Source: Candidatus Omnitrophota bacterium
GTDB taxonomy: Bacteria > Omnitrophota > Gorgyraeia > Duberdicusellales > 4484-171
Reading direction: 5' to 3'
Assembly (NCBI GenBank): GCA_043815185.1
Contig: JBDRJF010000005.1
Coordinates: forward strand, 3,407-67,406
DNA: 64,000 bases
This document shows, in pieces, positions 5,343 to 24,945 of the stretch. The notes under the pieces are model-generated. The model was given only the letters and a program-made list of their open reading frames with translations. It ran no database searches and was not told the DNA's origin. The first letter of the stretch is position 1. Every line of letters starts with the position of its first letter. A program made the translations under genes and the position numbers.

Positions 5343-6177
5343 GATAAACTACTGTAATTATAATATCGCCTAAGCCTAAAGAAGTCAAGTCTGGGCCCTC
5401 AAAACCCTCCATTCGAGTAAGATGGATCAGGCAGGCTTTGCCTCCCTGTTTAAACTCTAAACTCACTCCCTCCATGGTTATCCCAGCCATAGCCGCTTTA
5501 GCCTGCTGGGGTATCTTAGGACAAGTAGGGCAATCTTCGACCTTTGATAGATCGTATTGCTCAGAGCCGATAGCTTCCTGATTACTGAGACTCCAGCCTT
5601 GCTGGGGCATCTTCTGAAGATAAAAACCTTTAACTGCTTCTATGCCTCCGCTGGCCATATACCCGGCTTGCAGGCCGGAAGGAGTTTTACGGTAATCTAT
5701 CTGTCGACTCCCGGGATATAGGGGCATAAAATCCAAAGATTTTGGCTTCTCAAACAAACCTAAAGGCTGTCCTTGCTCTGCCCCCAGGCCTTGGGCCTTA
5801 GGGAATTCGCCGACACTAATACTGTAGAAAATAAGCTCTTCGGCCTTAAGCGGAGAGAAGTTTAAAACCAGCATCTGATCCCCTTTAATAAAATTATAGA
5901 CCCGGCCCTGTAAAGGCCCTGGGGCCTGAAGCATTGGTAAATCCAGCTTTCCCCAGCCCTTTTTGCTCAAGTTTTGCTGATAAAACTGGAGAATCTCGCT
6001 TTGGCTCAGAGAAGAACTGTATTGATAAACCGTAAACTGGCTTCCGGATATTTCCTGCTCAGCCTGGCTGGATAAATTAGTCTTAGCCGGTATTGGAAAA
6101 CCAAAGATTTGTGAAAATCCTGAAAAACTGGTTAAAATAAAAAAGACTAAAACAACTGCTACTTTTTTACTATTCAT
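5329..6177 (-). CDS. Secreted protein of unknown function with an internal duplication
   Basis: 282 aa. Signal peptide MNSKKVAVVLVFFILTSFSGFSQ. Two related modules (SEILQFYQQNLSKKGWGKL vs EAVKGFYLQKMPQQGWSLS). Embedded between pseudopilin-like genes. Confidence 0.5.
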   Translation of the reverse strand: MNSKKVAVVLVFFILTSFSGFSQIFGFPIPAKTNLSSQAEQEISGSQFTVYQYSSSLSQSEILQFYQQNLSKKGWGKLDLPMLQAPGPLQGRVYNFIKGDQMLVLNFSPLKAEELIFYSISVGEFPKAQGLGAEQGQPLGLFEKPKSLDFMPLYPGSRQIDYRKTPSGLQAGYMASGGIEAVKGFYLQKMPQQGWSLSNQEAIGSEQYDLSKVEDCPTCPKIPQQAKAAMAGITMEGVSLEFKQGGKACLIHLTRMEGFEGPDLTSLGLGDIIITVVYHDAK

Positions 6178-6286: not shown

Positions 6287-7774
6287 TTATTCCTCAATAT
6301 CTTTTATTGGCACGGCTAACTCCTCTAAAAGATGGTCGCTAAAGTCAGTTAAAACAATTGAGGCATCATAGTAAGGATGGGGACTATCAATTTTCCCATC
6401 GCCGGCAAAACAAGCCTGGGCTGAAGAGGTAGTCAGGGGGTATTCGGTACTCCAAACACCAAAATCTGCTCCCTGATAGCGCTGGGTTTGAATAACCTCC
6501 ACCAGCCGCTGGGGATTATCAGGAACTTCATCAATCCCGGTAATAAGATAAGGTAAGACATCGCCAGCGCTACTACTGGTAAAGGTTCCGTTAACCAATA
6601 AGCCCGCGTGGGCAGCAATGCTGGCAACCAAACCTTTTATTTCGGAGGCAAGGGCTAATCCGGCTATCCCTACTGCGGTACAAGGAAAAGGACAAGCTGC
6701 TGTGTCAGCCCAGCCTAAAAACCCCAAGGCTTCACTTCCAAAATACCAGGCTAAAGCCAGAGCAGCGATTTCTAGCGGAAAAGGCAGCATCGCAATCCGG
6801 AGAACATACCGCTCTATTGGCTCGATTGCTACCTGAACCGCCACATCATGGCTCCGACTCTGGCCGTCAAGCCAGGTATAATTCTTGATAGCGCTGTTGG
6901 CAACGTCGTCGATATTATCTTTTACCCAAAGCTGATATTCGGCCTTCTGGCTATCACAATTATCGATTAAACAATTTAGTTCTTCCCGGGAACAGGTATC
7001 TTGACAATCACCATAATCCTTCAAACAATCATTATCATATTCACCATCACTATCAATACAATCACTTCTAACCCCGCACCTTCCCTTACAATCCCTGTCA
7101 CAAGCTTTCTCACAGGCATCACAAAGGCTAATATCCTCTAGCCTGCAGCCTTTAAGTTTGGAAGCTGCGCCGCTGTTATTAAAAGCAAAACTATAGCCGG
7201 ACTCAAGAGCCCCCTGGTAATAATCAGCAACATTTTCGCGAATCATCCGGTAGAAGTAATATTGAGTCATCCAATAGCCAGTAACCGTAACCAGTAATTT
7301 TTTCATAGTGTCATTAAAAAGCTCCATTGAACCAGCAGCCACAGCTAAGGCTGCTAGGGCGTCAGCACAATATGATCCCCACAAAGCACAACACCAGGGC
7401 TTGGGACAGCATTTGGAATACTTGCAGGCAAGGGCTAAAAAGGTCATAGCCAGCGAGGTTTTAGTCATTGCCGTAGCCATAGCAACATAACCAATAGTAA
7501 AAGAAATCGTAGCCATGGCAAAAAAGTACTGGTAATTAACTATCATCTGGGAGTTGGCTACGGCCAGGTAATTAAAGGCTGAGGCCATGGTTGAAGCAGC
7601 GGCTAAGGCTCCGGCATCAGCAGCATTAGCCGAGTAGGTCTTGGTCTTGGCAACCTTTCCTATATTTACGGTAACTAAAGCAGCAATAATTACGGCGATA
7701 ATAAAAACAATAAAAAAAGGGACTAATTGTCCCTTATGATAAGCTAACTTATTTTGATTAAAATAAATAAACAT
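6287..7774 (-). CDS. tadG: TadG-like pilus-associated protein with a Cys-rich insert
   Basis: 495 aa. N-terminal TM helix plus a Tad N-terminal signature (VTVNIGKVAKTKTYSANAADAGALAAAS). 21 Cys, including KCCPKPWCC and CDACEKACDRDCKGRCGVRSDCIDSDGEYDNDCLKDYGDCQDTCSREELNCLIDNCDS. Confidence 0.6.
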   Translation of the reverse strand: MFIYFNQNKLAYHKGQLVPFFIVFIIAVIIAALVTVNIGKVAKTKTYSANAADAGALAAASTMASAFNYLAVANSQMIVNYQYFFAMATISFTIGYVAMATAMTKTSLAMTFLALACKYSKCCPKPWCCALWGSYCADALAALAVAAGSMELFNDTMKKLLVTVTGYWMTQYYFYRMIRENVADYYQGALESGYSFAFNNSGAASKLKGCRLEDISLCDACEKACDRDCKGRCGVRSDCIDSDGEYDNDCLKDYGDCQDTCSREELNCLIDNCDSQKAEYQLWVKDNIDDVANSAIKNYTWLDGQSRSHDVAVQVAIEPIERYVLRIAMLPFPLEIAALALAWYFGSEALGFLGWADTAACPFPCTAVGIAGLALASEIKGLVASIAAHAGLLVNGTFTSSSAGDVLPYLITGIDEVPDNPQRLVEVIQTQRYQGADFGVWSTEYPLTTSSAQACFAGDGKIDSPHPYYDASIVLTDFSDHLLEELAVPIKDIEE

Positions 7775-7787: not shown

Positions 7788-8567
7788 TTAATTTTGCACC
7801 CCAAATACATCCTGTTCAGTTAATGCATCCGGCGTATATACCGGCCAATATAAATCTTTGGGATCAGGAATAACCTCTTCTTGCTCTTCTAATTCAGCGA
7901 TCAGGGTATCTAAGCTGCCTATCTGTTCTCTTAATAAGTCTACGGCTCCCGGCAGGTTATTTGCAATGGCAGCTATGGCTGCATCAGTCTGATCAATAAC
8001 CCCTTGATAACGGTTGATCAGAGGATTAAGGACATTATTGATCCTGTTGTCTATTTCAATTATTCTCGCCTCAATCACAGTTAACCGGGCTTTAATCCAA
8101 TCTATCCGATCCACACAGGGCTCACATTGGCCATCCGGGCAACGCATCAAACAAGTCTGATAAAGTTGTGCCAGTTCAGCTTTTAAAGCGGTCCGCTCAG
8201 TCTCCCAAGCTGTCCGCTCAGTTTCCAAAGCTGCTTTCTCGGCCTTAAGCCGGCTTAAATCACTCTTAATCGGCGCTTTAGAGGCTTCCAATTCTGCTGT
8301 AGTATCATCGGTAAGCGGTTCCGTGGAATCAATTTGAGCCTGCAAAGCATCCCGCTGATCTTTAAGATTTTCCAGATAACTGTTGTCTACGGGCTGGCCG
8401 GAATTTTGGGTTACGGTTCCGGCAACAACCCGGGTCTGACTATATGCCGGCTGGCGCTGGGCAATCTGGCTATCACCCCAGATCCAGATACCGATTATAC
8501 CAAAGAATAAAAATAATCCGATAACTAAAACCAGAACTACCTCTAAAATTGCTTGTGACTTTATCAT
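7788..8567 (-). CDS. TadE/pseudopilin-like protein with a long coiled-coil body
   Basis: Likely start is ATG 8567 (MIKSQAILEVVLVLVIGLFLFFGIIGIWIWG), with a TAATG overlap on the upstream stop; the track start 8585 is GTG. Heptad-rich C-terminal part with a 21-nt tandem duplication (ETERTAW/ETERTAL, about 8190-8235) and a CLMRCPDGQCEPC motif. Confidence 0.5.
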   Translation of the reverse strand: MIKSQAILEVVLVLVIGLFLFFGIIGIWIWGDSQIAQRQPAYSQTRVVAGTVTQNSGQPVDNSYLENLKDQRDALQAQIDSTEPLTDDTTAELEASKAPIKSDLSRLKAEKAALETERTAWETERTALKAELAQLYQTCLMRCPDGQCEPCVDRIDWIKARLTVIEARIIEIDNRINNVLNPLINRYQGVIDQTDAAIAAIANNLPGAVDLLREQIGSLDTLIAELEEQEEVIPDPKDLYWPVYTPDALTEQDVFGVQN

Positions 8568-9142
8568 TATTGACTGGTGTCCCACCCTCTTTGTTTACTG
8601 GTTATTCTGTTCTGGCTAATCGTCTTTATCGGCTTCTCATCGGGATCCCTTAAGGTGTAAGTTAGATTTTCATCAATATCCACTTTATGAACAGAGCTAA
8701 TAAGACTAAGGGTTTCTGTCCGATTAAAACTTTTATCCAGCTTGGTACCGTATTCAAAAACAATATCACCGATCTGGTCATCCTCACTTAAGCTTATCTC
8801 TTCGTCATTAATGTTATAATAAAAGCTTCGGATCTGCTGATCCCCAACATAAGGAACTGACCAGTGAACATAATTTGAAGCACTGAGGTTGGTTCTTTGT
8901 CCGGCTAAAGGAGTATTGATGTCGATATGCCTGCGGTCTTCCAGGGTAGTATAATTAACTATAGCATTCTCATCATGGGCTTTCTTCAAAGCCTGGCGAA
9001 AATTACCCATTAAGGTATATTGCTCATCATTTAAACGCTGGATATAGCTGATCAGTAATGAAAATGCTATTAAAATCAGGGAACCTAAGATTCCTATCTC
9101 TAATACTGCTTGAGCTTTTCGAAAATAGATCGTCTCGGTCAT
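8567..9142 (-). CDS. tadE: TadE-like pseudopilin
   Basis: 191 aa. N-terminus MTETIYFRKAQAVLEIGILGSLILIAFSLLISY (basic leader, AQxxxE, hydrophobic helix). ATGA overlap with the upstream gene. Confidence 0.55.
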   Translation of the reverse strand: MTETIYFRKAQAVLEIGILGSLILIAFSLLISYIQRLNDEQYTLMGNFRQALKKAHDENAIVNYTTLEDRRHIDINTPLAGQRTNLSASNYVHWSVPYVGDQQIRSFYYNINDEEISLSEDDQIGDIVFEYGTKLDKSFNRTETLSLISSVHKVDIDENLTYTLRDPDEKPIKTISQNRITSKQRGWDTSQ

Positions 9143-9528
9143 TCCTGGCTTTCCTCATGGCTTATCAGGGTATCCGGCGGTTGGCTTGTGCCCGGCACAC
9201 CCTGTCCGTAATCTATCTGATCTAAACTCTCTACCTCATGGGTTGAATCCACGGTGTAGGAACTTGAGATACTAAGGCCGCTGCTTCCTCCTCGGCCTTC
9301 ACTTTTCTGGATATTACTGTTAGAAGTGATATTTTTGACAGACTTCTCAGTTACCGGATCATTTAAAGAAGCTAATTGTTTATCACTGATAACAGCATCG
9401 GTTAAGTCTTTTACCCGGGCCTGGATAGCTCTGCGCAAATAAGTATTCATTGTGGCTAAAGCTAAAACCACAAGAATAATCAAAATTACATATTCTGGTA
9501 AAGCCATTGCCCTTTTAAGCCTTGGCAT
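9139..9528 (-). CDS. Flp/TadE-like pilin with a Ser/Thr-rich tail
   Basis: Probable start is ATG 9528 preceded by GGGAGG (track start 9540 is GTG). MPRLKRAMALPEYVILIILVVLALATMNTYLRRAIQARV..., 129 aa. Confidence 0.55.
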   Translation of the reverse strand: MPRLKRAMALPEYVILIILVVLALATMNTYLRRAIQARVKDLTDAVISDKQLASLNDPVTEKSVKNITSNSNIQKSEGRGGSSGLSISSSYTVDSTHEVESLDQIDYGQGVPGTSQPPDTLISHEESQE

Positions 9529-9583
9529 AACGCCTCCCACTTTTACCTTTATCCTGCCGCTTTGCAGATTTTATGCTGGTTGC

Positions 9584-9892
9584 TTATTGGCCCCAGTATT
9601 CATTAGCCAGGACATCTACATCTTCACTAGTTTGCCTATTCTGAGTGGTGTTACTGCCAGAAGTGGTGACTCCGCCTGATAAATTCTCATTACTGGTAGT
9701 AGTACTAGTAACATTGGTTTGGCCTGTAGTGTATCCCGGTGAATATTGCTCTCCCAGTTCGTCAGACGCGGATTTAAGTTTTCCCTGTAAGCCCCTCTTC
9801 AAATAAACCTGCATGGCAATTAAGCCGCCGGCAACTACCGCGGCGATCAGAGCATACTCTAAGGTACTCTGTGCTCTCCTCTTAATCAACAT
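9584..9892 (-). CDS. flp: Flp-like pilin, extended form (102 aa)
   Basis: MLIKRRAQSTLEYALIAAVVAGGLIAMQVYLKRGLQG followed by a Thr/Ser/Gly/Asn-rich tail. GAGGAGG Shine-Dalgarno upstream of the ATG. Confidence 0.65.
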   Translation of the reverse strand: MLIKRRAQSTLEYALIAAVVAGGLIAMQVYLKRGLQGKLKSASDELGEQYSPGYTTGQTNVTSTTTSNENLSGGVTTSGSNTTQNRQTSEDVDVLANEYWGQ

Positions 9893-9926
9893 CTTTATAC
9901 CTCCTCTAACTTCAACTCTCTCCTTA

Positions 9927-10295
9927 TTATTCCTCTATAGTTGAAACATGAGTCTGTTCGGTTGCAGTTGATGTCACTGCAACATCTTGAACGCTATCTC
10001 TAGCCACTGCTCCGCCATCTAAAGTATCGCTGCCGCTGGTGCTGGTAGTGGCACGATTGATACCTGAGGTCCTCTGTTCACTATAATAAGGTTCATATTG
10101 CTTGCTTGTACCCAAAACCGCACCGCTACCGGTAATATCGCCGCTGACACTACTTAAAGCAACTCCGGCATCATGCATCTTAGCCTGTAGAGATCTTTTG
10201 ATATAAACCTGCATGGCTAAGGCTGCTCCCACAATTACCGATATCAATATGGCATATTCTGCGGTAGACTGCGCCTTTCTTAAATTAACCAACAT
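9927..10295 (-). CDS. flp: Flp-like pilin, extended form (122 aa)
   Basis: MLVNLRKAQSTAEYAILISVIVGAALAMQVYIKRSLQAKM followed by a Ser/Thr/Gly-rich tail. AGGAGGTG Shine-Dalgarno. Confidence 0.65.
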   Translation of the reverse strand: MLVNLRKAQSTAEYAILISVIVGAALAMQVYIKRSLQAKMHDAGVALSSVSGDITGSGAVLGTSKQYEPYYSEQRTSGINRATTSTSGSDTLDGGAVARDSVQDVAVTSTATEQTHVSTIEE

Positions 10296-10343
10296 CGCTT
10301 CACCTCCTGATTTTTCGCCTCTGTTTTACCGGTTACTTCCTCT

Positions 10344-10523
10344 TCACTGACCCAGATTAGAATCCATCTTTGAGGTCATTCTCGTCATGGTGTTAGTGGC
10401 ATCAGTAAAGCTCTGTTCTACTGCCGGCCTAACAAGAGTTCTGGCAGCAAATATTATCCCAGCAACGATCGCTGCTAAAATAAGGGTATACTCCAAAATA
10501 CTCTGCGCCTTTGTTAGTCTCAT
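10344..10523 (-). CDS. flp: Flp-type mini-pilin (59 aa), not in ORF track
   Basis: Manual translation: MRLTKAQSILEYTLILAAIVAGIIFAARTLVRPAVEQSFTDATNTMTRMTSKMDSNLGQ*. ATG at 10523 preceded by AGGAGGTGG; TGA at 10344-10346. Confidence 0.7.
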   Translation of the reverse strand: MRLTKAQSILEYTLILAAIVAGIIFAARTLVRPAVEQSFTDATNTMTRMTSKMDSNLGQ

Positions 10524-10542
10524 TCTACTCCACCTCCTAAAA

Positions 10543-10698
10543 TTACCTGATGCTCTCGTTTAACTCTGCCCGCACCTGGGCCAGACGAGCATTCATGGCT
10601 CTTTGAATATATATTTGCATGGCCATTAAGGCCCCGGAAATTATTGCGATTAATGCTGCGTACTCAAGGAAACTCTGGGCTTTAGTTTTTTTGAACAT
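10543..10698 (-). CDS. flp: Flp-type mini-pilin (51 aa), not in ORF track
   Basis: Manual translation: MFKKTKAQSFLEYAALIAIISGALMAMQIYIQRAMNARLAQVRAELNESIR*. ATG at 10698 preceded by GAGGA; TAA at 10543-10545. Confidence 0.7.
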   Translation of the reverse strand: MFKKTKAQSFLEYAALIAIISGALMAMQIYIQRAMNARLAQVRAELNESIR

Positions 10699-10705
10699 CT
10701 TATCC

Positions 10706-10870
10706 TCACTGTAATATTACCTTTACACAACTGTTATAGTGACTAGAAAAACTTTGCTTTAGTTTAGAAAGAAATCCGGTACTAATAATAGCGGCAATCA
10801 CTATAGCAAATATAACTACATATTCAAAAACTATCTGAGCCTGTTTAAATTGTTTATCTTGGGTTCGCAT
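10706..10870 (-). CDS. flp: Flp-type mini-pilin (54 aa), not in ORF track
   Basis: Manual translation: MRTQDKQFKQAQIVFEYVVIFAIVIAAIISTGFLSKLKQSFSSHYNSCVKVILQ*. ATG at 10870 preceded by AGGAG; TGA at 10706-10708. First gene of the pilin array. Confidence 0.65.
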   Translation of the reverse strand: MRTQDKQFKQAQIVFEYVVIFAIVIAAIISTGFLSKLKQSFSSHYNSCVKVILQ

Positions 10871-11106: not shown

Positions 11107-12549
11107 TCAAAAAAGAAAAACCCGGCGCTGGTCCAGGTAAAAACACCCTTTATTAAAGGCTTCTTTAGCCTGTTTGGGCATTTTGCTCAGGCTAACCCCA
11201 AGATAATCCTGGCCCCAGACTAAACTTCCGGCTTTATTTTTAGGCTCCCAGCCCCAGATTATCTCTTTAAAAACAGCCGATAAAATTTGGCCCACTCTCG
11301 AGAAATCAAGCATTTCCTTAAAATTTAGCTTCTGAGGCAGCATCTTAGTCAAATAACCCTTATTTTTAGAGGTAGTAACCAGGAATTCCTCAATAGCCCT
11401 CATATCCTCAATAAACCGCTTTTGGGCCTGGGGCCATAAATATAGGTACTTTTTTAAAAAAGAAGCTACTCTTAACTTGTTACGGCTGATGTTGCCGGTA
11501 AGCAGGCCCCAGGTAGGTAGCGAAGCTGCAGCTGGCTTTATGAGGACATTATTTATCATAAGTTGTTGCTTTCCTTCATGTTGCGCAACCTTTGTTAGAA
11601 CTGAAGCACATAAAAGTTCACCGACGCCACCCCAAAAAAAGCTTTTAAAATTTGAGGGTCTAGCTACAAAGCTTATACCCTTAGAAATAGCTTCCGGATA
11701 GTAACCAATAAAAAAGGAGACCTTAGATAAATTTATTCTCTTTTGCTCTATGACTCTGCCCCGAGGATCTAAAAATTCAATCTTTTCTATTCCTTTATCT
11801 ATAGCCTGGAGAAAATCAAAGGTCAAGGGTGAAAGGTAGCCAAAACTCTTAGTATAGCCGATAATAATGGTCTTACTCTCAATCATGCCTTGAATAAGTT
11901 TAGTGGCTGATCTTAAAGGAAGGAAGAATTCTGCTATCCGGCAAGGCCCATTCCAGAAAGTAGACATCTTAGCATCAAAGTAACTGCAATAGCCATTATT
12001 AAAGTAAAATTTTAGGCTTGAAACCAGGATTAAACTGTCTCTTAGAGGGCCCAGGTCTATCTGGGGTTTATGTTGGGAAAGCTGGTGCTGAAAGTAACTC
12101 AGTTTACTGGCCGGCAGGGTCCTTAGCCCGGCTAATCTCAAAAAACCTTCTCTTTGGGCGCTTTTTTGCGGTTGCTCATTAATCAAGGCTGAAAAACTGG
12201 TTAAAATAATTAATTGCTTTAATAAATCCTTGGTTAATTTAGGGAAATAATTTTTAAGCTCCTGGCTTAAATAATCGAATATACCGACTTGATAATCCAG
12301 GCAGCGAAGCAGGAATAATCCGCAATGCTCAAGAGTCCGGCCCTTATAAATAAGTAAGGATTTCTTACGGCCCCTTTTTTCTTTGAGGCCGGAGGAGGTA
12401 AGAATTTTATTAACTGCGCTTTTAGAGATAGTAATTTTATGTTTCTGCTGCAGCAGCCCAGATAAAAGCCTAACCCCCAGATGAGGAGCACGTCTTTTCT
12501 CTTGAAGCACTATTTTTCTTAGCGCAGGAGTTACTATTCTTTTTGGCAT
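11107..12549 (-). CDS. Hypothetical 480-aa protein with an N-terminal transposase-type helix-turn-helix
   Basis: N-terminus LRKIVLQEKRRAPHLGVRLLSGLLQQKHKITISKSAVNKILTSSGLKEKRGRKK resembles the HTH seen at the start of IS481/IS3-type transposases. I cannot recognise a DDE/rve core in the remaining ~400 aa, and no terminal inverted repeats are seen. Confidence 0.4.
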   Translation of the reverse strand: MPKRIVTPALRKIVLQEKRRAPHLGVRLLSGLLQQKHKITISKSAVNKILTSSGLKEKRGRKKSLLIYKGRTLEHCGLFLLRCLDYQVGIFDYLSQELKNYFPKLTKDLLKQLIILTSFSALINEQPQKSAQREGFLRLAGLRTLPASKLSYFQHQLSQHKPQIDLGPLRDSLILVSSLKFYFNNGYCSYFDAKMSTFWNGPCRIAEFFLPLRSATKLIQGMIESKTIIIGYTKSFGYLSPLTFDFLQAIDKGIEKIEFLDPRGRVIEQKRINLSKVSFFIGYYPEAISKGISFVARPSNFKSFFWGGVGELLCASVLTKVAQHEGKQQLMINNVLIKPAAASLPTWGLLTGNISRNKLRVASFLKKYLYLWPQAQKRFIEDMRAIEEFLVTTSKNKGYLTKMLPQKLNFKEMLDFSRVGQILSAVFKEIIWGWEPKNKAGSLVWGQDYLGVSLSKMPKQAKEAFNKGCFYLDQRRVFLF

Positions 12550-16434: not shown

Positions 16435-16452
16435 TTAAGTTAGTTTAATGTG

Positions 16453-16475
16453 CGGTTGAGGCTAAGCCTCAACCG
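16453..16475. repeat. REP palindrome copy 4
   Basis: CGGTTGAGGCTAAGCCTCAACCG, 19 nt upstream of the RAYT start codon. Confidence 0.9.
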
Positions 16476-16534
16476 GGGGTGTTAAAAATATTGGGGGTGT
16501 CCTTTGTGGATAACCCCCAATAAAAATTTCGAAT

Positions 16535-16798: not shown

Positions 16799-16880
16799 CT
16801 CAGCCACCTCCTTCTTATTAAACACCTGCCTATACACACTACCTGACCTAAATTAGGACTGTTCCAAAATGCAACAGTCC

Positions 16881-16962
16881 CTGATTACATAGATTAAATA
16901 CAGATTCCAAAGATTAAATTATTCTTAAGCACTGTAATCTCTTTTTTAATCATTGTAATCAG
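16881..16962. repeat. Long imperfect AT-rich palindrome built from GATTA(CA)/TAATC words (element A)
   Basis: ctgattacatagattaaatacagattcc ... ttaatcattgtaatcag: the arms are reverse complements with a few mismatches. Shares agattacatagattaa and taatcattgtaatc with 34661-34730. Flanked by hairpins 16856-16879 and about 16962-16988 that share tgcaacag. Confidence 0.7.
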
Positions 16963-17084
16963 GCGCTGGTGCTATTATGCAACAGCGTCCTTATGTCCTC
17001 TCTACTTAATAGACGTAATAGACGCACAAATTCTTTCAAAAATTTTTACTTTTTTTAAATATACAGGTTTGGATTAACCAAAGA

Positions 17085-17120
17085 CCCGGTTGAGGCTTAG
17101 CCTCAATAGCCTCAACCGGG
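17085..17120. repeat. REP palindrome copy 5 (opposite centre orientation, internal 9-nt duplication)
   Basis: CCCGGTTGAGGCTTAGCCTCAATAGCCTCAACCGGG: centre T instead of A, and agcctcaa is duplicated. Lies 9 nt downstream of the anti-sigma stop. Confidence 0.85.
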
Positions 17121-17128
17121 TGGAGAGA

Positions 17129-17683
17129 CTAAGGGTGGGGGGATTTGAATCGGTCTTTTAGGCGATTGGAGATTTCGTCGTTCTCATCGCGAGAGTGGCG
17201 ACGCCAGGAATCAAACACCATAATAAGAATCCGGCCGTTTTCGCTTTCCAATACCCAACGTATGCCCAAAACAAAAGCGGCTACCAGACATTGCATAAAA
17301 TACTTTGGCAGTAGAAATGAGATGATGAAAAACATAATTGCCCCGGCAAGAGATAGATTCTTTTTCATTCGACTCACCCTTCCCTTGCCAATAGTATTTT
17401 TACCATTCTTAAGCAGTGCTTTGGCTTTATTTACAAGCCCAGAGGGAACTTTCCCTCCTATATTACGAATATTTGATTTTTTAGCTTCAAAGGCTAAATT
17501 AAGCTGGCTAAGGCAGAAATTGCATCGAGAAAGATGTTCTTCAACGCCTTTACGTTCCTGGCTACCCAGCTTAGACCCAAGATAATCCAGCAAGACTTCC
17601 TGACCAAGGCATTGAGCAGTTTTTTCAATATTGCCCGACTCTTTTTTAAGGTAGTTTTTAAGATACTCTTCTATTTTTCGCAT
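17129..17683 (-). CDS. Membrane-bound zinc-binding anti-sigma factor (ZAS type)
   Basis: 184 aa. HxxxCxxC motif (HLSRCNFC), then TM helices (LSLAGAIMFFIISFLLP, LVAAFVLGIRWVL). Directly downstream of the ECF sigma gene. Confidence 0.7.
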   Translation of the reverse strand: MRKIEEYLKNYLKKESGNIEKTAQCLGQEVLLDYLGSKLGSQERKGVEEHLSRCNFCLSQLNLAFEAKKSNIRNIGGKVPSGLVNKAKALLKNGKNTIGKGRVSRMKKNLSLAGAIMFFIISFLLPKYFMQCLVAAFVLGIRWVLESENGRILIMVFDSWRRHSRDENDEISNRLKDRFKSPHP

Positions 17684-17726
17684 TTTTCTCTCCTCTTTAA
17701 TAGACGAAATAGCTCTTCTTTTTCTT

Positions 17727-18293
17727 TCAAAAATCTTTTAAGCCCATTTTCTCTAGCCCTTTCTTAACCTTTTCTTTAGTCCGGGCGATTATGGTTGATA
17801 CGCTATTTACCGGCATAGCAGTAATTTCAGCAATTTCTTTATGGGTCCTGCCTTCAATAAGATTAAGGGAAATAGCAATCTTTTCCTTAACAGGCAAAGT
17901 ATCCATAATATTACCTAATAGATTTAATAAATCCCTTTTGTATAATTCCTCTTCAAATTTATCATTTTTTAACACCGGCATCTCTATAACAAGCTTCTGG
18001 TCTTGCTTTATTTTGCGCCGCATAAAATCAACTGTTTTATTGGAAGCTGTTACCGCCAGCCAGCTGGCAATTGTTTTTATATCTTTTAATTGAAGGAGTT
18101 TATCCCCTTGTAAAATTGATAAAAACACTTCCTGAAAAATACAATTAATATCGTCCTGGTTAAAACTAAAACCGCTAGCGGTCAAACGCTTTCTTATTGC
18201 CCAATAAATCAGCCTTGAATACTTTTGGACAAATATATCCCAAGCCTTTTTGTCCTTTTTTAAACAATAACTTATAAGTTGAAGTTCATTCAT
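17727..18293 (-). CDS. ECF-type sigma-70 family sigma factor
   Basis: 188 aa. Region 2-like (YSRLIYWAIRKRL...DDINCIFQEVFLSIL) and region 4 HTH (RTHKEIAEITAMPVNSVSTIIARTKEKV). Confidence 0.8.
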   Translation of the reverse strand: MNELQLISYCLKKDKKAWDIFVQKYSRLIYWAIRKRLTASGFSFNQDDINCIFQEVFLSILQGDKLLQLKDIKTIASWLAVTASNKTVDFMRRKIKQDQKLVIEMPVLKNDKFEEELYKRDLLNLLGNIMDTLPVKEKIAISLNLIEGRTHKEIAEITAMPVNSVSTIIARTKEKVKKGLEKMGLKDF

Positions 18294-18301: not shown

Positions 18302-19363
18302 TTAGTCTGAGAAGGCCTTATCGCCAAGTAGATCTAGCTTCTGGAAGTCAGCAAAGAATTTGGGATACATCCTCATGGTAGTGGTAAATTTTCCCTTTAT
18401 CTTGCCGTCAGGGTTCTTACCTTCAGCCTTAAATACAAATAGGTTTTGAATGGTAATTTCTCCCCGCTCGAGATCTCTTACTTCACTAATATGAGTTATG
18501 CGGCGAGAACCATCAAGAAATCTTTCTTGCTGAACAATTATATCTACAGTATTGGCAATCATCTTTCTTATTTCCCCGATTGGCAATTTTATCCCTGAAG
18601 AAAGTATCATTGTCTCCAGACGGCTGACTATTTCCTGGGGAGAATTACCGTGGACTACTGCTAAGGTGCCTTTATGTCCGGTAGACATAGCCTGAATCAT
18701 ATCTATTGCTTCCGCGCCTCTTACTTCACCGACAATAATTCTATCCGGCCGCATCCGCAAAGCATTTCTGATCAAATCCCGCAAAGTAACTTCACCCTTA
18801 CCCGCCTCATCGGGAGAACGTGTCTCTAGCGAAACTAAATTCTTATGATGGAGTTTAAGTTCCGCGGTATCCTCTATGGTAACTATCCGCTCATCTTTGG
18901 GAATATGGAAGGAAAGCATCTCCAGGGTGGTAGTCTTTCCTGCACCAGTTGCTCCGGAGAAAAGTATGTTTAGGCGCCCCTTGATACAGGCAATTAAAAG
19001 CTCAGCCATCTTTTGACTTAAGGTCCCTTTGGCTGTTAAATCATCGAGGCTCTTTATCTCTTGAGAGAATTTTCTGATTGTAATTGCCGCTCCCAGGCGA
19101 GCTAAGGGGCTGATTATAACGTTGACTCGGGAACCATCTTCTAAACAAATGTCAGCGTAAGGGGAGGCAACAGATACGTTTCGCCCGCCCTTCTTAAAAA
19201 CCTCATCAATCACTTCTTTTATCTCTTGAGGATTAAAAATCACATCTATACTCTTCTTTCTGCCTGCTACTTCGATAAAAGTAGCCTGAGAGCCATTGAC
19301 CATGATCTCAGTAATAGCTGGGTCGCCCAATAACTTTTTGATTTTTGTTGCTCCGTCTGGCAT
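18302..19363 (-). CDS. cpaF: CpaF/TadA-type secretion ATPase, stand-alone paralogue
   Basis: Walker [67 protein letters not shown]. Probable start is ATG 19363 (MPDGATK), 4 nt after the upstream stop; the track start 19429 overlaps the upstream gene. Confidence 0.85.
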
Positions 19364-19367
19364 AGTA

Positions 19368-21533
19368 CTAATCCTTAGTAATAAATATTTCTCGCGGCAA
19401 ATCGATACCCCTGGCCTGTATTTCTTCATAAAAAGATGGGATATAACCTAAAGGAGTAAATTTTCCTAAAACTCCTCCCTGAGCATCCACCCCGGTTTGA
19501 GAAAACCTAAAAATATCCTTAAGGTCTATATGAACATCATCGAGCATACCGACAACTTCGGCGATTTGGACAACTTTACGCGAACCGTCGGAAAGACGGG
19601 CAACATGCACTATTAAATCTATGGCTGATGAAACCATCTCCCTGATAGAACGAATGGGAAGTTCTATCCCGCTCATTAAAATCATGCTATCTAATCTTAT
19701 TAAAACATCCTGGGTGGAATTGGCGTGGATGGTCGATAAGCTTCCGTCATGGCCGGTATTCATTGCTTGAAGCATATCCAAAGCTTCACCGCCCCGGGAC
19801 TCACCGACAATTATTCTATCCGGACGCATCCGTAAGGTATTCCGGAATAAATCTTTTATGGTGATCCCGCCCTTACCCTCTATATTCGGCGTCCGGGATT
19901 CAAGCCTGATCCAATGAGCTTGATCTAATTTCAATTCGGCCGAATCCTCAATAGTAACTATCCGTTCACCCTCGGGGATAAATGAGGAAATAATGTTAAG
20001 TAGGGTGGTTTTTCCCGAACCGGTACCGCCGGAAACCAATATGTTTTTCCGGGATTTTACTGCCGCATCTAAGAATTTGGCCATCCCCGGACTTAGACTA
20101 TCGAACTTTTGTATTAAATCTTCCACAGTAAAACGTTTCTGAGAAAACTTTCTGATAGTTAAAGTCGGCCCGGTTAAGGAAAGCGGCGGGATTAAAGCAT
20201 TTACCCGGGAACCATCAGGAAGCCGAGCGTCAACATAAGGAACAGATTCGTCAATCCTGCGGCCCAAAGGAGCAAGAATCCGCTCAATTACTACCTTGAC
20301 TTGTTCATTGGTGGTAAACCTTTTACTGGTTAATTCTAATTTACCTTTTTTTTCTATATAGACCTGATCCTTATTATTAACCATAATTTCAGTAATTGAA
20401 GGGTCGCCAATTAAATCCTCTAAGGGGCCAAAACCCAAAGCCTCATCCAGGATCTCCTTAGTTACTTGCTTTCTAATCTCCAAAGAAGAAATAAATCCTC
20501 CGGCTTCCTTGCTGATAATATTGGAAATTATCCTTTCGGCCCTCTTCCTTAACTCTTCAGCTTTAGCAGCGTGGGCCATAAAGGCATCTACCGATAAATT
20601 CTTTAAGTCTAACTCGGTGATAAGTCTCTGGTGAACCCTGCGCTTAAATCTTATTATCTGGTCCTCTTCTTCCTGCAGGGTAGTCTTCTTAGCCTCTCCA
20701 CTGGCATAACTCTTCTGCCAAAAAACCCCATTATGCCCCCCCTCTTCTTTAGCCACTCTGATATCAGCAAGACTCTTATGCTCTATGTATAGGTCTTTTT
20801 TGCCGATAAGCAGATCAGCTAATTTATTAAGTGCCAGGGCAGCTTTAGAATTGGGGCTATCAATAACTACCGGTATTCCCCGATTAACAGCTAAACCGAT
20901 AGTCCTTCCCTCAGAAGGTATCAAAGCAATAACCTCTGACGGCAGAAGCATTTTTATCTCTTGCCAACTTATCGAGCCTTTACTTTCGGCCCGATTAAGA
21001 ATTATCTTAATCATCTTGAGCGGAAAACCTAAACTCTGTAAGGTATCAAGAAGCCATTCGGTTTGATAAACCGATAGGATATCAGGGGTAAGAATTAAAA
21101 AAATAATATTGGAGGAATCAAGGGTAGCAATCAGATTATCGCTTAAATTGCTGCCGGCATCTATAAGTACGTAGTCAAATTCTCTGCTGATAACTGAAAT
21201 AAAATCCTTTATCCCCTGATCGGTTATCTGGGCACCTTGAGATATTTTAGAAATGGCTGGTAAGAAAAAAAGATTATTCTTATAGCAGCCTATGTAATTG
21301 CGAATGTTTCTTTTTTTACTTTTAAATTCGCCCAGGTGTCCGATTAAATTAAATAAGCTGTACTTACTCTTAGTTCCCAAGAGTTTAGAAGTTTCCTGGG
21401 GGGCTCCTAAGCCTAAATCCAGATGAAATACTTTCTTGTTTTTTAGGGCCAGGCTGACTGCTAGATTTAAAGAAATAAGGGTTTTACCTACCCCTCCCTT
21501 GGTGCTAAAGAAAGAAATTACTCTCGATTCCAT
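19368..21533 (-). CDS. Fusion protein: ParA/MinD-like (CpaE/TadZ-like) N-terminal domain + CpaF/TadA ATPase
   Basis: 721 aa. Residues 1-~260 carry the deviant Walker A FFSTKGGVGKTLISLNLA. The C-terminal ~400 aa carry [66 protein letters not shown]. Confidence 0.8.
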   Translation of the reverse strand: MESRVISFFSTKGGVGKTLISLNLAVSLALKNKKVFHLDLGLGAPQETSKLLGTKSKYSLFNLIGHLGEFKSKKRNIRNYIGCYKNNLFFLPAISKISQGAQITDQGIKDFISVISREFDYVLIDAGSNLSDNLIATLDSSNIIFLILTPDILSVYQTEWLLDTLQSLGFPLKMIKIILNRAESKGSISWQEIKMLLPSEVIALIPSEGRTIGLAVNRGIPVVIDSPNSKAALALNKLADLLIGKKDLYIEHKSLADIRVAKEEGGHNGVFWQKSYASGEAKKTTLQEEEDQIIRFKRRVHQRLITELDLKNLSVDAFMAHAAKAEELRKRAERIISNIISKEAGGFISSLEIRKQVTKEILDEALGFGPLEDLIGDPSITEIMVNNKDQVYIEKKGKLELTSKRFTTNEQVKVVIERILAPLGRRIDESVPYVDARLPDGSRVNALIPPLSLTGPTLTIRKFSQKRFTVEDLIQKFDSLSPGMAKFLDAAVKSRKNILVSGGTGSGKTTLLNIISSFIPEGERIVTIEDSAELKLDQAHWIRLESRTPNIEGKGGITIKDLFRNTLRMRPDRIIVGESRGGEALDMLQAMNTGHDGSLSTIHANSTQDVLIRLDSMILMSGIELPIRSIREMVSSAIDLIVHVARLSDGSRKVVQIAEVVGMLDDVHIDLKDIFRFSQTGVDAQGGVLGKFTPLGYIPSFYEEIQARGIDLPREIFITKD

Positions 21534-21537: not shown

Positions 21538-23133
21538 TTAATCTATCTCGTAAACGATGGGTATATCAATCCATATATCTTTTAGCTCAATATCAGGAGG
21601 AAAAGACGGGTAGGGGCTTAGAGATTTAACCACTTTTAATACACTATCGTCAAAAGAAAGATAATTTGAGGATTGGCTAATCTGAGCATCCATAAGCTCG
21701 CCTTTGCGGTTAAGATGCAACTTTATCTTCATTGACCCCTGCCAACCGGCATCCTGAGCCAGGCGGGGATATTCCAAAGACTGAAAGATAGTTTTTTGAA
21801 TTTCTAAAATATAATTATTTAAACCAGCTTCTTCGGCTAGATACTGAGGATTAACTTTTAACCTTGCAGATGAAAAATCTTCTCTGCCGGTTACGATCTT
21901 ATCTTCACTTTTTTCGTCCGTCTCCACCAGCCTGGGAACAATAGAAATCACTAGCTCGGTTTGGTCATTCTGATAATCTTTAGACCTAAAAAGTGCTCCT
22001 AAGATAGGAATATCACCTAAGCCGGGAACTTTACTAATGTCATCTTTAGTAACTTTATCTTTAAATAGACCGGCGATAACAACCCCCTGGCCGGATCTAA
22101 GGTTCAAGACAGTAGAAGTACTCCTGGTAGCAAAAGATTTGATGGTTGTGCCGTCAGCGCGTTCGTATTGGCCCTCGGTAGATAACTCCTTTACCTCGGT
22201 AACTAAATTTACCTTTATATCGTCTCCTCTGAGAACAACCGGTTGAATATTTAATTTTACCCCGTATTCTTTATATTCTATGTCTTCAGCCACGGTATCG
22301 CCGGAAGAAGAGGAACTGACTTTAACTATTGGAACTTCTCCTCCGACTAAAAAACTAGCCTCCTCCCCGGATAAACATAGAAGCTTTGGTTTAGCTAAAA
22401 TTTTACCCTTGCCCTCTTTAGCGGCAGCCATAATCTGAACATCCAGGGCTGATCTGGTAATATCTACAATCCTAAAAACATCTTTAAATTTTCCGGTTGA
22501 GGCCGCAGAAGTAAGCTGATTTACAGCTGTCGGTGAAGAACCCGAGGTTCCGGTCCAGTCAAGGCCAAAAACTTCCGAAAAACTCTTAGTTAATTCTAAA
22601 ATATGGCATTCTATCTCTACCATCCGGCGCTCTTCTTTTACTAATAACAAGTTATCAATACTTTCGGTGAAAGGCGCAAGTATTGTTTCTATCTGGCCCC
22701 TCTCGACGGCAGTTACCTCTCCGATGACCATTACCTTACCGGTGGCATCATTCTTTTTAAAACTCACATTTTTCATTTTTAGTCTTTTGTTAATTGCCCT
22801 AGCTAATATTTTAGCCAAAGCATCGGGATCATTAGCATAAACGGTAATATAAAACAGTTTTTCTCCCTCCCTGTCCCATACTGTCAGAATAGTGCTTCCT
22901 GACTGCTTAGCTAAAAGTATTATTTCTTCAGTCGATACCGAGTCGACATCGGCTATCTCAGGATTTCTGACTGAAACTCTTTTCGGCGAGACTACCTCTA
23001 TTGCCTTAACTTCTCCTGTTACCATAAATATATCGCCGCTCTCCTCTTCTAGATCCAGAAATTGGCCAAAGGCGCTTTGAGAAGTAATTAGGGCTGTACA
23101 AACTAGTATTTGGAAAAATAATTTTCTTAGCAT
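21538..23133 (-). CDS. cpaC: CpaC/RcpA-type secretin with a C-terminal TonB_C-like domain
   Basis: 531 aa. Signal peptide. Secretin core (VPGLGDIPILGALFRSKDYQNDQTELVISIVPRLV). The last ~90 aa (nt ~21538-21816) read YPRLAQDAGWQGSMKIKLHLNRKGELMDAQISQSSNYLSFDDSVLKVVKSLSPYPSFPP, a TonB C-terminal-type pattern. Confidence 0.75.
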   Translation of the reverse strand: MLRKLFFQILVCTALITSQSAFGQFLDLEEESGDIFMVTGEVKAIEVVSPKRVSVRNPEIADVDSVSTEEIILLAKQSGSTILTVWDREGEKLFYITVYANDPDALAKILARAINKRLKMKNVSFKKNDATGKVMVIGEVTAVERGQIETILAPFTESIDNLLLVKEERRMVEIECHILELTKSFSEVFGLDWTGTSGSSPTAVNQLTSAASTGKFKDVFRIVDITRSALDVQIMAAAKEGKGKILAKPKLLCLSGEEASFLVGGEVPIVKVSSSSSGDTVAEDIEYKEYGVKLNIQPVVLRGDDIKVNLVTEVKELSTEGQYERADGTTIKSFATRSTSTVLNLRSGQGVVIAGLFKDKVTKDDISKVPGLGDIPILGALFRSKDYQNDQTELVISIVPRLVETDEKSEDKIVTGREDFSSARLKVNPQYLAEEAGLNNYILEIQKTIFQSLEYPRLAQDAGWQGSMKIKLHLNRKGELMDAQISQSSNYLSFDDSVLKVVKSLSPYPSFPPDIELKDIWIDIPIVYEID

Positions 23134-23149: not shown

Positions 23150-23956
23150 TTACTTAGATAGAGAAACCTCTTCTTTTTGAGTTCCTTTATAAACTTCCAG
23201 GGTCGCTTTCTTCTCTTCTACCTGAGGGGGCTGAGCCCACATACCCAACCTCCGCATAAGCGTCTCAAAAGTAACTGCTGAATAACCGACTTCTTGAGAA
23301 GAATCCAGGGGGGCTCGCAGAACCAATCGAATTTTATTACCGGATTCTAAGACAAAGGTAAGTAGTTTTATATCTTCGGGTTTAAGAGCAATTGTAACTG
23401 TCTCAGCTGAACTCTCTATCCGGTAAGGAGAAATATTCTTGCCGGTAGCCAGAATCTTTACTCCCTGGAAAAGGGTAACTACCAGGTTTTGCCCGGCTTG
23501 AATCGCAAAAGTCCCGATAATATCCACATGATCGCTGGGTTTCATTAACCCTTCGACAGAAGAAATTTTATCTACCGGTATGGTTATCGCCCGCATACCT
23601 TTAGGAATTCTTTGAGAAAGAAACTGAGCCCCGCTTACACTGCCAATCATATTGTTGTTTATATGCTGTCCTTTTAAAATATCTACCCTGGCTATTTTCC
23701 CTACCGCTGACTCTATGGCGGTCAGGTCTCCGGGCTGATAAGCAGTAGAGCGAATTCGGCTTAAGGCCACCGTATCCTGATCAATAGCGCTCTCTTTAGA
23801 AATATCCACCCTAGCGGTTACTACTTCTAATATTTCACCTTTGTTATAAAGCTGCTGGATCAGTTTCTGATCTTCCTGCATTTTGGTATGAATTAGCAGT
23901 ATAGCAACAACCGCTAAGCCAATTCCGATTATCAGATTTAAAACTCTCTTATCCAT
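23150..23956 (-). CDS. cpaB: CpaB/RcpC-like Flp pilus assembly protein
   Basis: 268 aa. N-terminal TM (LNLIIGIGLAVVAILLI), a SAF-like segment (EVVTARVDISKESAIDQDTVAL), then an RcpC-like beta-rich region. Directly upstream of the secretin. Confidence 0.7.
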   Translation of the reverse strand: MDKRVLNLIIGIGLAVVAILLIHTKMQEDQKLIQQLYNKGEILEVVTARVDISKESAIDQDTVALSRIRSTAYQPGDLTAIESAVGKIARVDILKGQHINNNMIGSVSGAQFLSQRIPKGMRAITIPVDKISSVEGLMKPSDHVDIIGTFAIQAGQNLVVTLFQGVKILATGKNISPYRIESSAETVTIALKPEDIKLLTFVLESGNKIRLVLRAPLDSSQEVGYSAVTFETLMRRLGMWAQPPQVEEKKATLEVYKGTQKEEVSLSK

Positions 23957-23964: not shown

Positions 23965-24945
23965 TTAGTTAATCAAACCGCTGTTTATAACCGTATTCGG
24001 TTCGAATCTAGATCTTACTGCCCCCATCAATTGGCCGATAGAATCCATACTCTTATTCTGAAGCAAGATATACTCTAACTCGTTGTATACCTCATCCAGA
24101 GATTGAGGTACTCCTTTTTGGACATCATCAACCTTAAGAATATAATACTCCTCCTTGACCGGATCTTTAAAAACGCTGGAGGTGCCATCTTTATCTAAAC
24201 TAAAAGCCACTTCCCAGAACTTGGGAAATTTTAATCCTGGTTGTCTTACTAAATATTCCTGGTCGTTATGTTTTAGCAGCCCGCCGGCTGCTGCACTCTC
24301 AGTGAGAGAGTGCTGTGAGGCTAATTCATTAAAGTTACTTCCGCTAAGCAGCTGGATTAATAAATCCTTGGCTTTAGATTCTGAATCTACTACGATTTCC
24401 CTGATTTTTCTTCTCTCTATGCTCTCTAAAGTTCTTTTGTAGTCGTTATTATATAAATCCTCTACCTCTATGGGGGTTACATTAATATCCTTAAGGGTAT
24501 TTTTGAGCAAGGAAAAACCAAGAATCTCGACTGTGCTTTTTCTTATACCCTTTACCACTTCCGGGTCTCGATCTAATCCCCGCAGTTTAGCTTCTTGAGC
24601 TAGTAACTCCTGATTAATCATAAGTTCTAAATAAATCTTTTTGGTCTCAGGGGAGCTTAAATCAATCCTCTCCACTTGGGGAGATAGGAATGTACCGGCT
24701 AAAACTCCTAATGCCTGTACCGGAATTTTAGTGTTTCCTCCGTTGAGCTTAATCAACATATCTACCTGCTGATCAAACTCATCAATGGTTAATACCCAAT
24801 CATTTATTTTAACCAAAATAGGGCTGGTTGGTCCGATTACAGGAGTGGTTGGCGGAGAAACTTTCCTAAAACTAGGTAAGAGATCACAACCTAAGAAACT
24901 CAAGGCAAAAACAACGGCTACAATAACAAAATATATCCTTTTCAT
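23965..24945 (-). CDS. Lipoprotein peptidyl-prolyl isomerase (parvulin/SurA-PrsA-like)
   Basis: 326 aa. Lipobox SFLGC. Parvulin-like segment REIVVDSESKAKDLLIQLLSGSNFNELASQHSLTESAAAGGLL. First gene of the machinery operon. Confidence 0.6.
   Translation of the reverse strand: MKRIYFVIVAVVFALSFLGCDLLPSFRKVSPPTTPVIGPTSPILVKINDWVLTIDEFDQQVDMLIKLNGGNTKIPVQALGVLAGTFLSPQVERIDLSSPETKKIYLELMINQELLAQEAKLRGLDRDPEVVKGIRKSTVEILGFSLLKNTLKDINVTPIEVEDLYNNDYKRTLESIERRKIREIVVDSESKAKDLLIQLLSGSNFNELASQHSLTESAAAGGLLKHNDQEYLVRQPGLKFPKFWEVAFSLDKDGTSSVFKDPVKEEYYILKVDDVQKGVPQSLDEVYNELEYILLQNKSMDSIGQLMGAVRSRFEPNTVINSGLIN

Follow-up and report, generated by a model that had tools for sequence, protein, structure and literature searches.

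In Caulobacter crescentus the Tad (type IVc) pilus is served by a single bifunctional motor, the ATPase CpaF (PDB 8RKD, 9E24; Ellison 2019; Hohl 2024; Yen 2025), which has a disordered N-terminus and is accompanied by a separate CpaE bearing an atypical receiver domain (ARD). The way in which a single ATPase can serve both extension and retraction of these pili is under active study, and the models proposed are an allosteric switch and a physical inversion of the ring. A hybrid protein, TadZA, encoded in tad locus 1 of Bdellovibrio bacteriovorus, has been functionally studied; its TadZ region is without an ARD, and TadZ together with the linker binds the polarity hub RomR (bioRxiv, July 2026; 10.64898/2026.07.08.737194). 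The same preprint describes extra tadA paralogues elsewhere in the B. bacteriovorus genome and makes no mention of Omnitrophota, and the report of Tad complexes in Omnitrophota by Seymour et al. 2023 does not describe the fusion. Here we analyzed a stretch of 64,000 nucleotides (nt) from a Candidatus Omnitrophota bacterium (assembly GCA_043815185.1, contig JBDRJF010000005.1, positions 3,407 to 67,406), hereafter the window. The window contains one Tad pilus locus in two blocks around a 5.7-kb insert, in which a TadZA gene is followed by a gene encoding TadA2, a second and divergent ATPase of the CpaF family. Residues assigned to the two faces of the CpaF ring are retained in largely opposite fashion by the two proteins, a pattern suggestive of a division of labour between extension and retraction.

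TadZA and the adjacent TadA2

The two genes and their domains, with boundaries from an AlphaFold2 (AF2) model scored by predicted local distance difference test (pLDDT), are as follows (aa, amino acids; NTD, N-terminal domain).

19368..21533, minus strand: tadZA, open reading frame (ORF) of 721 aa joining a ParA/MinD-type ATPase to a complete CpaF/TadA
20769..21533, minus strand: TadZA residues 1-255, TadZ/CpaE-type ParA/MinD ATPase domain without the N-terminal receiver-like domain (AF2 pLDDT ~80)
20658..20768, minus strand: TadZA residues 256-292, flexible inter-domain linker of ~37 residues (AF2 pLDDT <50 at 257-292)
20436..20657, minus strand: TadZA residues 293-366, three-helix bundle (N1 domain) of CpaF (AF2 helices 292-307, 315-343 and 351-366)
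19368..20435, minus strand: TadZA residues 367-721, CpaF NTD and C-terminal ATPase domain, stop codon included (T2SSE 4e-65, matching residues 366-650)
18302..19363, minus strand: TadA2, divergent CpaF-family ATPase of 353 aa, NTD and ATPase domain only (T2SSE 4e-51)

The fusion of a ParA/MinD-type domain to CpaF, originally predicted from the sequence, is real and all of the motifs quoted in its support are present. Residues 4-~250 of TadZA match the Pfam families AAA_31/CbiA/ParA, and the best NCBIfam matches of the N-domain are archaeal MinD (1.6e-28) and bacterial MinD (2.4e-25). The TadA family model TIGR03819 matches with 1e-98 and 331 bits, under its equivalog cutoff of 373. Residues 286-715 align with residues 75-492 of Caulobacter CpaF (4.5e-115), the three-helix bundle included, so that the TadZ domain with its linker occupies the place held in the Caulobacter protein by a disordered N-terminus of 79 residues. 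Across 42 orthologues, conservation of the linker is only partial. The ATPase domain contains the Walker A, Asp box, Walker B and His box (including TGHDGSLSTIHAN); Walker A (GGTGSGKT), loop 8 (GRRIDES) and the pore loop (NIEGKG) are all canonical, while TQ takes the place of 'PR' at the N-terminus of helix alpha-11 and L that of E443. The AF2 model of the full fusion, built on the 42-sequence alignment, is mediocre (mean pLDDT 67) and good for domain boundaries only.

An ORF of this kind could arise if a stop codon or frameshift dividing cpaE from cpaF had been missed; in most phyla these are separate genes lying next to each other, often in the same frame and with only a stop codon between. 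The original prediction had pointed to the junction as the place to look for such an error, and no artefact was found there: an uninterrupted ORF of 708-743 aa containing both domains is kept in 117 fusion-type clusters among the best 120 protein matches (58-100% identity; NCBI, JGI, ENA and Logan assemblies). The recurrence of the same ~720-aa ORF in at least 117 clusters, taken from four data sources independent of one another and including complete genomes, and the absence of the ARD from all fused forms, which sequencing error cannot produce, leave this explanation effectively refuted. Those fusion clusters that are named are nearly all labelled Omnitrophota or Omnitrophica. The fusion protein is identical to NCBI protein P0001 and TadA2 to P0121, both from the same 86-kb contig of a Candidatus Omnitrophota metagenome-assembled genome.

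TadZA of the window resembles that of Bdellovibrio in being a single polypeptide of TadZ without ARD, linker and full TadA, in the position of its gene after rcpC/cpaB and the secretin gene, and in a tad locus that is distributed over more than one block and in which no prepilin peptidase is identified. The proteins differ in that the TadZ parts are 24-30% and the TadA cores 52-60% identical, and the loci in that tadZA is followed by tadB in Bdellovibrionota and by tadA2, with the gene unk480, in the window. As with Bdellovibrio, more than one TadA-family ATPase occurs in a TadZA-bearing genome; however, the rcpA2-tadA2 module and tadA3 of B. bacteriovorus, set beside Omnitrophota TadA2 by description rather than by sequence, lie in other loci, and in that organism tadA2 accompanies a second secretin, differs in its expression profile and is not required for predation.

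The mechanically called ORF of the second ATPase gene (18302..19429, minus strand) encodes 375 aa. Translation from the conserved start, an ATG at 19363, gives a protein of 353 aa, a length matching that of the NCBI gene call (P0121) and of more than 100 orthologues of 353-360 aa. The junction reads ...AAGGATTAG TACT ATG, that is, the TAG stop codon of tadZA, four nucleotides and the ATG of tadA2, with the Shine-Dalgarno-like motif AAGGA 8 nt upstream. The gene is translated separately and is probably coupled translationally to tadZA. The results thus agree with the earlier description of a second CpaF of 353 aa, starting 4 nt downstream and lacking the long N-terminal region.

TadA2 aligns with residues 151-481 of Caulobacter CpaF (1e-85), the next family in the PDB scoring 6e-43. 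Since the alignment starts only at CpaF residue 151, the three-helix bundle is missing, as is the disordered region, and about 7 residues precede the NTD. In a survey of 292 CpaF orthologues falling in three architecture classes the bundle was found in all and defines the minimum architecture (Yen et al. 2025, PMC12019362). The CpaF part of TadZA has this architecture of three-helix bundle, NTD and ATPase domain, whereas TadA2 falls below it. The catalytic apparatus of TadA2 is nevertheless complete: the Walker A, Asp box, Walker B, His box and arginine finger are intact, so that a search for degenerate motifs in the second paralogue, proposed originally as a way to discredit it, yielded none. 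For both ATPases the closest structural relative is Caulobacter CpaF, which shares their catalytic motifs; it differs from the Omnitrophota system in that the latter has a second paralogue, below the published minimum domain architecture.

TadA2 is represented by at least 120 orthologue clusters of 353-360 aa with identity of 61% or more, and by hand count 27 fusion/TadA2 cluster pairs fall on contigs of equal size. The gene order secretin-tadZA-tadA2 was found in the window and in seven related loci (L001, L082, L083 and L086-L089). Identity of TadA2 is 41-49% to each of the CpaFs sampled, the neighbouring TadZA core included (46%); between the TadZA core and CpaFs from other phyla it is 52-65%. 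A phylogeny of the ATPase cores, as had been recommended, was constructed by neighbour-joining (76 sequences, 354 columns, 100 bootstraps, no outgroup) and placed TadA2 in a clade with 100% bootstrap support that lies outside all of the sampled canonical CpaFs, at the end of a long branch. The possibility that TadA2 is a recent tandem duplicate of the TadZA core was rejected on the grounds of the 46% identity and the equal distance from all CpaFs. TadA2 is also not a member of the PilT family, scoring 72 bits with TIGR01420 against a cutoff of 319 and having no AIRNLIRE motif. A literature search in which subscription journals were thinly covered found no two adjacent TadA-type ATPases. On alignment and tree, TadA2 is a variant of CpaF that is new in both architecture and sequence, and the identity of the parts of the locus is secure.

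Triple tandem CpaF proteins of ~1150 aa were also encountered (P0014, P0019 and P0035, three of the top 120 matches; L085:1527-5003). Their layout is [three-helix bundle-NTD-ATPase]-[NTD-ATPase]-[NTD-ATPase] with all three Walker A motifs intact, and two such chains would form a covalent pseudo-hexamer. P0014 is encoded in a tad-like locus (GCA_034417895.1) with two T2SSF genes, a TadE gene and genes for VWA proteins.

Conservation of the two motor faces

The N-face of Caulobacter CpaF contacts the platform through helix alpha-5, loop 8 (G204, R205, R206, D208) and the pore loop (E331, G334) (Yen et al. 2025, PMC12019362). A preprint (Whitfield et al. 2026) proposes that CpaF flips and that its C-face drives retraction, for which the N-terminus of alpha-11 (P386, R387), the beta13-beta14 turn and a C-terminal motif are required; R387A blocks retraction and is the mutation with the strongest such effect in Caulobacter. 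Residues at these positions were counted in our own alignment, in Caulobacter numbering, for unfused CpaF (n = 38), Omnitrophota TadZA (n = 12) and TadA2 (n = 15).

R206 (N-face): unfused CpaF 37/38; TadZA 12/12; TadA2 0/15
D208 (N-face): unfused CpaF 38/38; TadZA 12/12; TadA2 0/15
E331 (N-face): unfused CpaF 37/38; TadZA 12/12; TadA2 3/15
K287, T288 and R347 (catalytic): unfused CpaF 38/38; TadZA 12/12; TadA2 15/15
P386 (C-face): unfused CpaF 35/38; TadZA 1/12; TadA2 14/15
R387 (C-face): unfused CpaF 36/38; TadZA 2/12; TadA2 1/15
E443 (C-face): unfused CpaF 38/38; TadZA 1/12; TadA2 10/15

E443 represents the beta13-beta14 turn and was chosen for its invariance in the unfused set, independently of the turn residues highlighted by Whitfield et al. 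2026. The pattern is complementary in that the N-face is intact in TadZA and two residues of its C-face (P386 and E443) are lost, the reverse being mostly true of TadA2, and it is incomplete in that R387 is lost in both proteins and a full-length C-terminal motif is present in both. All six N-face residues named above, G204, R205 and G334 included, are conserved in 12 of 12 Omnitrophota TadZA sequences, and the three-helix bundle, loop 8 and pore loop of Caulobacter CpaF are all kept. In TadA2, R205 is replaced by K in 14 of 15 sequences while G204 and G334 are kept, and the replacement loop 8 is itself conserved as G-K-x-x-S (14/15); conservation across the clade therefore points to a new constraint rather than drift. 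Determinants of the N-face and the C-face thus appear to be partitioned between two paralogues in one lineage.

Bdellovibrionota TadZA, unlike that of Omnitrophota, keeps P386-R387 (6/6, with E443 replaced by Q in 6/6), and P386-R387 is kept in 9 of 10 Tad loci from Bdellovibrionota and Elusimicrobiota that contain tadZA with no tadA2 nearby. A strict association between loss of the PR motif in TadZA and an adjacent tadA2 was considered and is not clean; the Omnitrophota locus L002 has T-Q at this position and no tadA2 within 10 kb.

Possible roles of TadA2

The complementary losses of face residues fit a division of labour between the two proteins. TadZA would be the platform-engaging assembly (extension) motor, since it keeps all of the residues assigned to N-face contact with TadB/TadC in Caulobacter CpaF, and it may be locked in the extension orientation by its bulky N-terminal TadZ domain, its intact N-face and the loss of C-face residues. 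TadA2 is predicted to be an active hexameric ATPase unable to use the canonical N-face interface. It would most likely engage the same platform via its C-terminal face and drive disassembly as a PilT-like retraction motor, so that the two orientations proposed for a single flipping CpaF would be split between two proteins in this Tad lineage. There is a parallel in type IVa pili, where a long motor with an N1 domain (PilB) is paired with a short motor of ~350 aa without N1 (PilT), the gene for the short motor can be unlinked and the two motors are proposed to act on opposite faces of the ring; TadA2 without the three-helix bundle corresponds in this respect to PilT without the N1 domain of PilB. 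In contrast to PilT, TadA2 clusters with CpaF and any functional similarity would be convergent. Of the options raised by the original prediction for the presence of two motors, extension versus retraction has gained support at the sequence level from the face-residue pattern and remains inferential.

A split of the PilB/PilT kind is the best-supported reading of TadA2, held tentatively, as something possible rather than probable. The whole proposal, with TadZA extending and TadA2 retracting on the same platform, is given a little less than an even chance, and that a subclade of Omnitrophota, drawing on the CpaF family itself, replaced one self-inverting Tad motor by a system of two motors is a more doubtful extension of it. 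Several observations weigh against the split. R387 is R in only 1 of 15 TadA2 sequences, with Q or K instead, and the loss of the C-terminal motif reported for 'extension-only' motors is seen in neither TadZA nor TadA2. TadA2-like genes of 55-68% identity (L092:5914-7047, L104:5986-7050 and L125:5977-7047) occur as orphans among housekeeping genes, in the order parA-parB-ndk-yicC-gmk-flavoprotein (coaC-like)-[TadA2-like]-thrS-infC with the start overlapping or abutting thrS, and no tad genes were found within 6 kb of them; their existence indicates that the link to the tad locus is not obligatory. In a complete Omnitrophota genome (CP070807.1; L001:12176-12871) the tadA2 that follows tadZA ends after residue 232, just short of the His box, and abuts an oppositely oriented gene encoding 1809 aa, while tadZA is intact, a result explained by either a pseudogene or an assembly error. 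The deeper Omnitrophota locus L002 combines the T-Q substitution in TadZA with the lack of a neighbouring tadA2 noted above. Lastly, the flipping model itself comes from a preprint and rests largely on AlphaFold3 (Whitfield et al. 2026).

Among the alternatives an unrelated role of TadA2 ranks first, a mixed ring next and decay last. TadA2 could act off the Tad platform, in other secretion, in DNA uptake or in housekeeping, its place in the tad locus being incidental or regulatory. The conserved housekeeping neighbourhood of the orphans, one more solitary TadA2-like copy in L084 and the loss of the residues for platform contact at the N-face all point this way, as does the succession in this lineage of tadA2 by a sigma/anti-sigma pair and dprA-comM. 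We consider it unlikely in view of the wide margin by which CpaF/TadA is the closest family, the retention of tadA2 right after tadZA in at least eight sequenced loci and the cluster pairs on contigs of equal size; moreover, the window encodes no alternative platform protein, its T2SSF genes being two only. The location of the orphans is no argument against retraction, pilT genes being commonly unlinked from their own pilus operons. If TadA2 were unrelated to the pilus, the finding would shrink to a routine refinement of annotation.

Co-assembly of TadZA and TadA2 in a hetero-hexamer, for example 2:4 or 3:3, was also put forward originally; with the bundle and the bulky TadZ domain on some subunits only, crowding at the N-face would be eased. 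Coupled translation, suggested by the 4-nt gap and the Shine-Dalgarno motif, would match synthesis of the two proteins, and CpaF hexamers are C2-symmetric trimers of distinct states (PMC12019362). The natural triple-CpaF proteins carry the bundle in the first unit only, which shows that the family includes rings in which just one subunit in three has it. Units 2 and 3 of the triple proteins, however, keep the canonical loop 8 GRRIDE, which TadA2 does not, and TadA2-like orphans occur away from any tadZA. The truncation of TadA2 beside an intact tadZA in one complete genome also speaks against a mixed ring, and the 46% identity and long branch make conservation of the inter-subunit interfaces uncertain. 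A mixed ring is considered improbable, somewhat more so than an unrelated role. Far less likely is a redundant tadA copy heading for loss. The shortened copy in CP070807 and the loss of some conserved CpaF surface motifs would be expected of such a duplicate, but full-length orthologues persist in the at least 120 clusters down to 61% identity, the Walker A, Walker B, arginine finger and His box are retained in 15 of 15 sequences, and the replaced loop 8 is conserved within the clade.

Should the division between an extending TadZA and a retracting TadA2 be true, the locus would be a natural experiment separating the two orientations proposed for CpaF, and TadA2 a convergent analogue of PilT. 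The inversion model predicts in this case that TadA2 binds TadB/TadC by the C-face only and TadZA by the N-face only.

Spread of the fusion and organization of the locus

One genome per GTDB species was scanned by tblastn followed by ORF checking, and true single-ORF fusions were verified in 14 species-representative genomes:

Omnitrophota, single ORF: L001-L003
Bdellovibrionota, single ORF: L005, L006, L009, L011, L013 and L015 (the last from isolate Bdellovibrio sp. HCB288)
Elusimicrobiota, single ORF: L023, L047 and L069
Unclassified loci, single ORF: L004 and L037

The premise of the original prediction, that TadZ/CpaE and TadA/CpaF are separate proteins in described loci, is out of date given TadZA of B. 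bacteriovorus and the single-ORF fusions in Bdellovibrionota and Elusimicrobiota. The fusion is known as a kind, Omnitrophota being a new phylum for it, and TadZA, so far discussed only for Bdellovibrio, is extended to Omnitrophota and Elusimicrobiota. The lineages bearing TadZA are largely suspected of predatory or parasitic lifestyles. A wider spread across many phyla, suggested by tblastn matches over residues 4-717, was rejected, most of these being separate cpaE and cpaF genes with an in-frame stop between. Many unfused cpaE and cpaF genes in loci L007-L081 share a frame with a stop codon alone between them, probably a ranking bias of tblastn, which extends through in-frame stops, rather than biology. 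In the tree the fused forms fall in three separate clades (bootstrap support 95% for Omnitrophota, 100% for Bdellovibrionota and 98% for Elusimicrobiota) with the deep nodes unsupported, and a single origin of the fusions is not shown by these sequences.

Loss of the ARD accompanies every fusion. All 14 fused forms have 0-30 residues ahead of the N-domain homology (0-3 in TadZA of the window, where Walker A begins at residue 12), and scorable unfused cpaE genes have ~72-201 extra N-terminal residues, mostly 120-170 with one outlier of ~510; since the extra residues are found only in the unfused genes, the fused part corresponds to the ATPase half of TadZ/CpaE without the atypical receiver domain. 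This part contains the deviant Walker A KGGVGKT, with K12, G13, G14, G16, D39 and D125 conserved, and has 21-33% identity to the ATPase half of the protein encoded upstream of cpaF in over 40 loci of other phyla. In a search of a structure library the TadZ part alone matched MinD (8e-16) about equally with PDB 3EA0 (1e-12) and gave no match to TadZ 3FKQ, whereas a profile of fused and unfused domains in the TadZ position matched 3EA0 (8e-50), MinD (~1e-33) and Eubacterium rectale TadZ (3FKQ, 1e-13). The original prediction had spoken of a tethered positioning domain. The ATPase half of TadZ is indeed tethered; a positioning role is not established, because the literature credits polar targeting to the ARD and the ARD is absent from the fusions. 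By analogy with Bdellovibrio TadZA, the tethered domain probably serves in ATP-dependent dimerization or partner binding and would not be the source of the ARD-based polar targeting of classical TadZ.

The window has a GC content of ~40% and nearly all genes lie on the minus strand. The remaining genes of the Tad locus, in the order of transcription, are:

23965..24945, minus strand: PpiC/SurA-like peptidyl-prolyl isomerase, conserved first gene of the cluster (Pfam Rotamase_2/Rotamase)
23150..23956, minus strand: CpaB/RcpC Flp pilus assembly protein (TIGR03177 pilus_cpaB 1.7e-40, above cutoff; Pfam RcpC and SAF)
21538..23133, minus strand: secretin of the RcpA/CpaC type (Pfam T2SS-T3SS_pil_N 39-96, Secretin 237-404, TonB_C 453-530)
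17727..18293, minus strand: sigma factor of the extracytoplasmic function (ECF) type (Sigma70_r4_2 and Sigma70_r2)
17129..17683, minus strand: putative anti-sigma factor (weak Pfam zf-HC2, E 0.24, and adjoining the sigma gene; kept in L086 and L101)
12773-18293, minus strand: inserted block between tadA2 and unk480 (sigma, anti-sigma, SpoVG, IS200-like Y1 transposase-like gene, dprA, comM, yraN)
11107..12549, minus strand: unk480, Omnitrophota-restricted protein of 480 aa (family of 74 clusters, every given source name Omnitrophota/Omnitrophica)
7788..10870, minus strand: eight Flp/pseudopilin-like genes (N-terminal pattern (K/R)xQ(S/A)xxEY followed by a hydrophobic helix)
10706..10870, 10543..10698, 10344..10523 and 9927..10295, minus strand: Flp/pseudopilin-like genes 1-4
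9584..9892, 9139..9540, 8567..9142 and 7788..8585, minus strand: Flp/pseudopilin-like genes 5-8
6287..7774, minus strand: TadG/TadE-like minor pilin (Pfam Tad, PF13400, 7e-07, above cutoff)
5329..6177, minus strand: unk282, conserved accessory gene (homologues in L082 and L083)
4416..5342, minus strand: pilin-like accessory gene encoding 308 aa (pilin-like N-terminus)
3472..4323, minus strand: TadB-type platform protein (T2SSF 5e-22)
2609..3475, minus strand: TadC-type platform protein (T2SSF 1.5e-13)

The location of both motors in a tad locus is evident from the genes for CpaB and the secretin upstream and from those for pilins, TadG, TadB and TadC 8-16 kb downstream in the same window. An apparent absence of platform genes near the motors was rejected on finding TadB and TadC at 2609..4323 together with the pilins. 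A TadB homologue directly follows tadZA in Bdellovibrionota and Elusimicrobiota loci, with or without tadC, and tadA2 is not nearby there. In the window the secretin stop codon and the start of tadZA are separated by 4 nt, and the rotamase gene occupies an equivalent position in L001, L082, L083, L087 and L088. A TonB_C domain at the C-terminus of the Tad secretin is also found in L001, L082 and L083.

The block from the sigma factor gene to yraN is recognized as an insert because the cluster is contiguous in the related Omnitrophota contigs L082, L083, L088 and L089, where the order is rotamase-cpaB-secretin::TonB_C-tadZA-tadA2-unk480-pilins-tadG...tadB and unk480 directly follows tadA2. The block is also present in the closest relatives (L086 and L101), in which the sigma factor gene likewise follows tadA2; in the window, from the junction sequence, the sigma factor gene starts 8 nt past the stop codon of tadA2. 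A link between the pilus and DNA uptake is conceivable, dprA and comM being natural-transformation genes. The AF2 model of unk480 has a pLDDT of 88 and Tn5 transposase as its sole structural match, a weak one (E ~1e-3, TM 0.2); a weak match to a transposase-type helix-turn-helix is present at the N-terminus, and no obvious conserved DDE triad was found among the invariant residues. The protein may be a domesticated transposase-like regulator or a Tad accessory protein.

The pilin array gave one match to Flp_Fap, which is sub-threshold, and homologous arrays are present in L002, L082 and L083. No prepilin peptidase was recognized in the whole window. Where the classical Flp signature is G/XXXXEY, nine pilin-like genes (4416-10870, minus strand) have the unusual N-terminal (K/R)xQ(S/A)xxEY. 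Outside the Tad locus, a gene of the window (39903-44753, minus strand) encodes an SMC protein of 1616 aa that is split just past the P-loop by an intein (residues ~46-593) carrying a LAGLIDADG homing-endonuclease domain.

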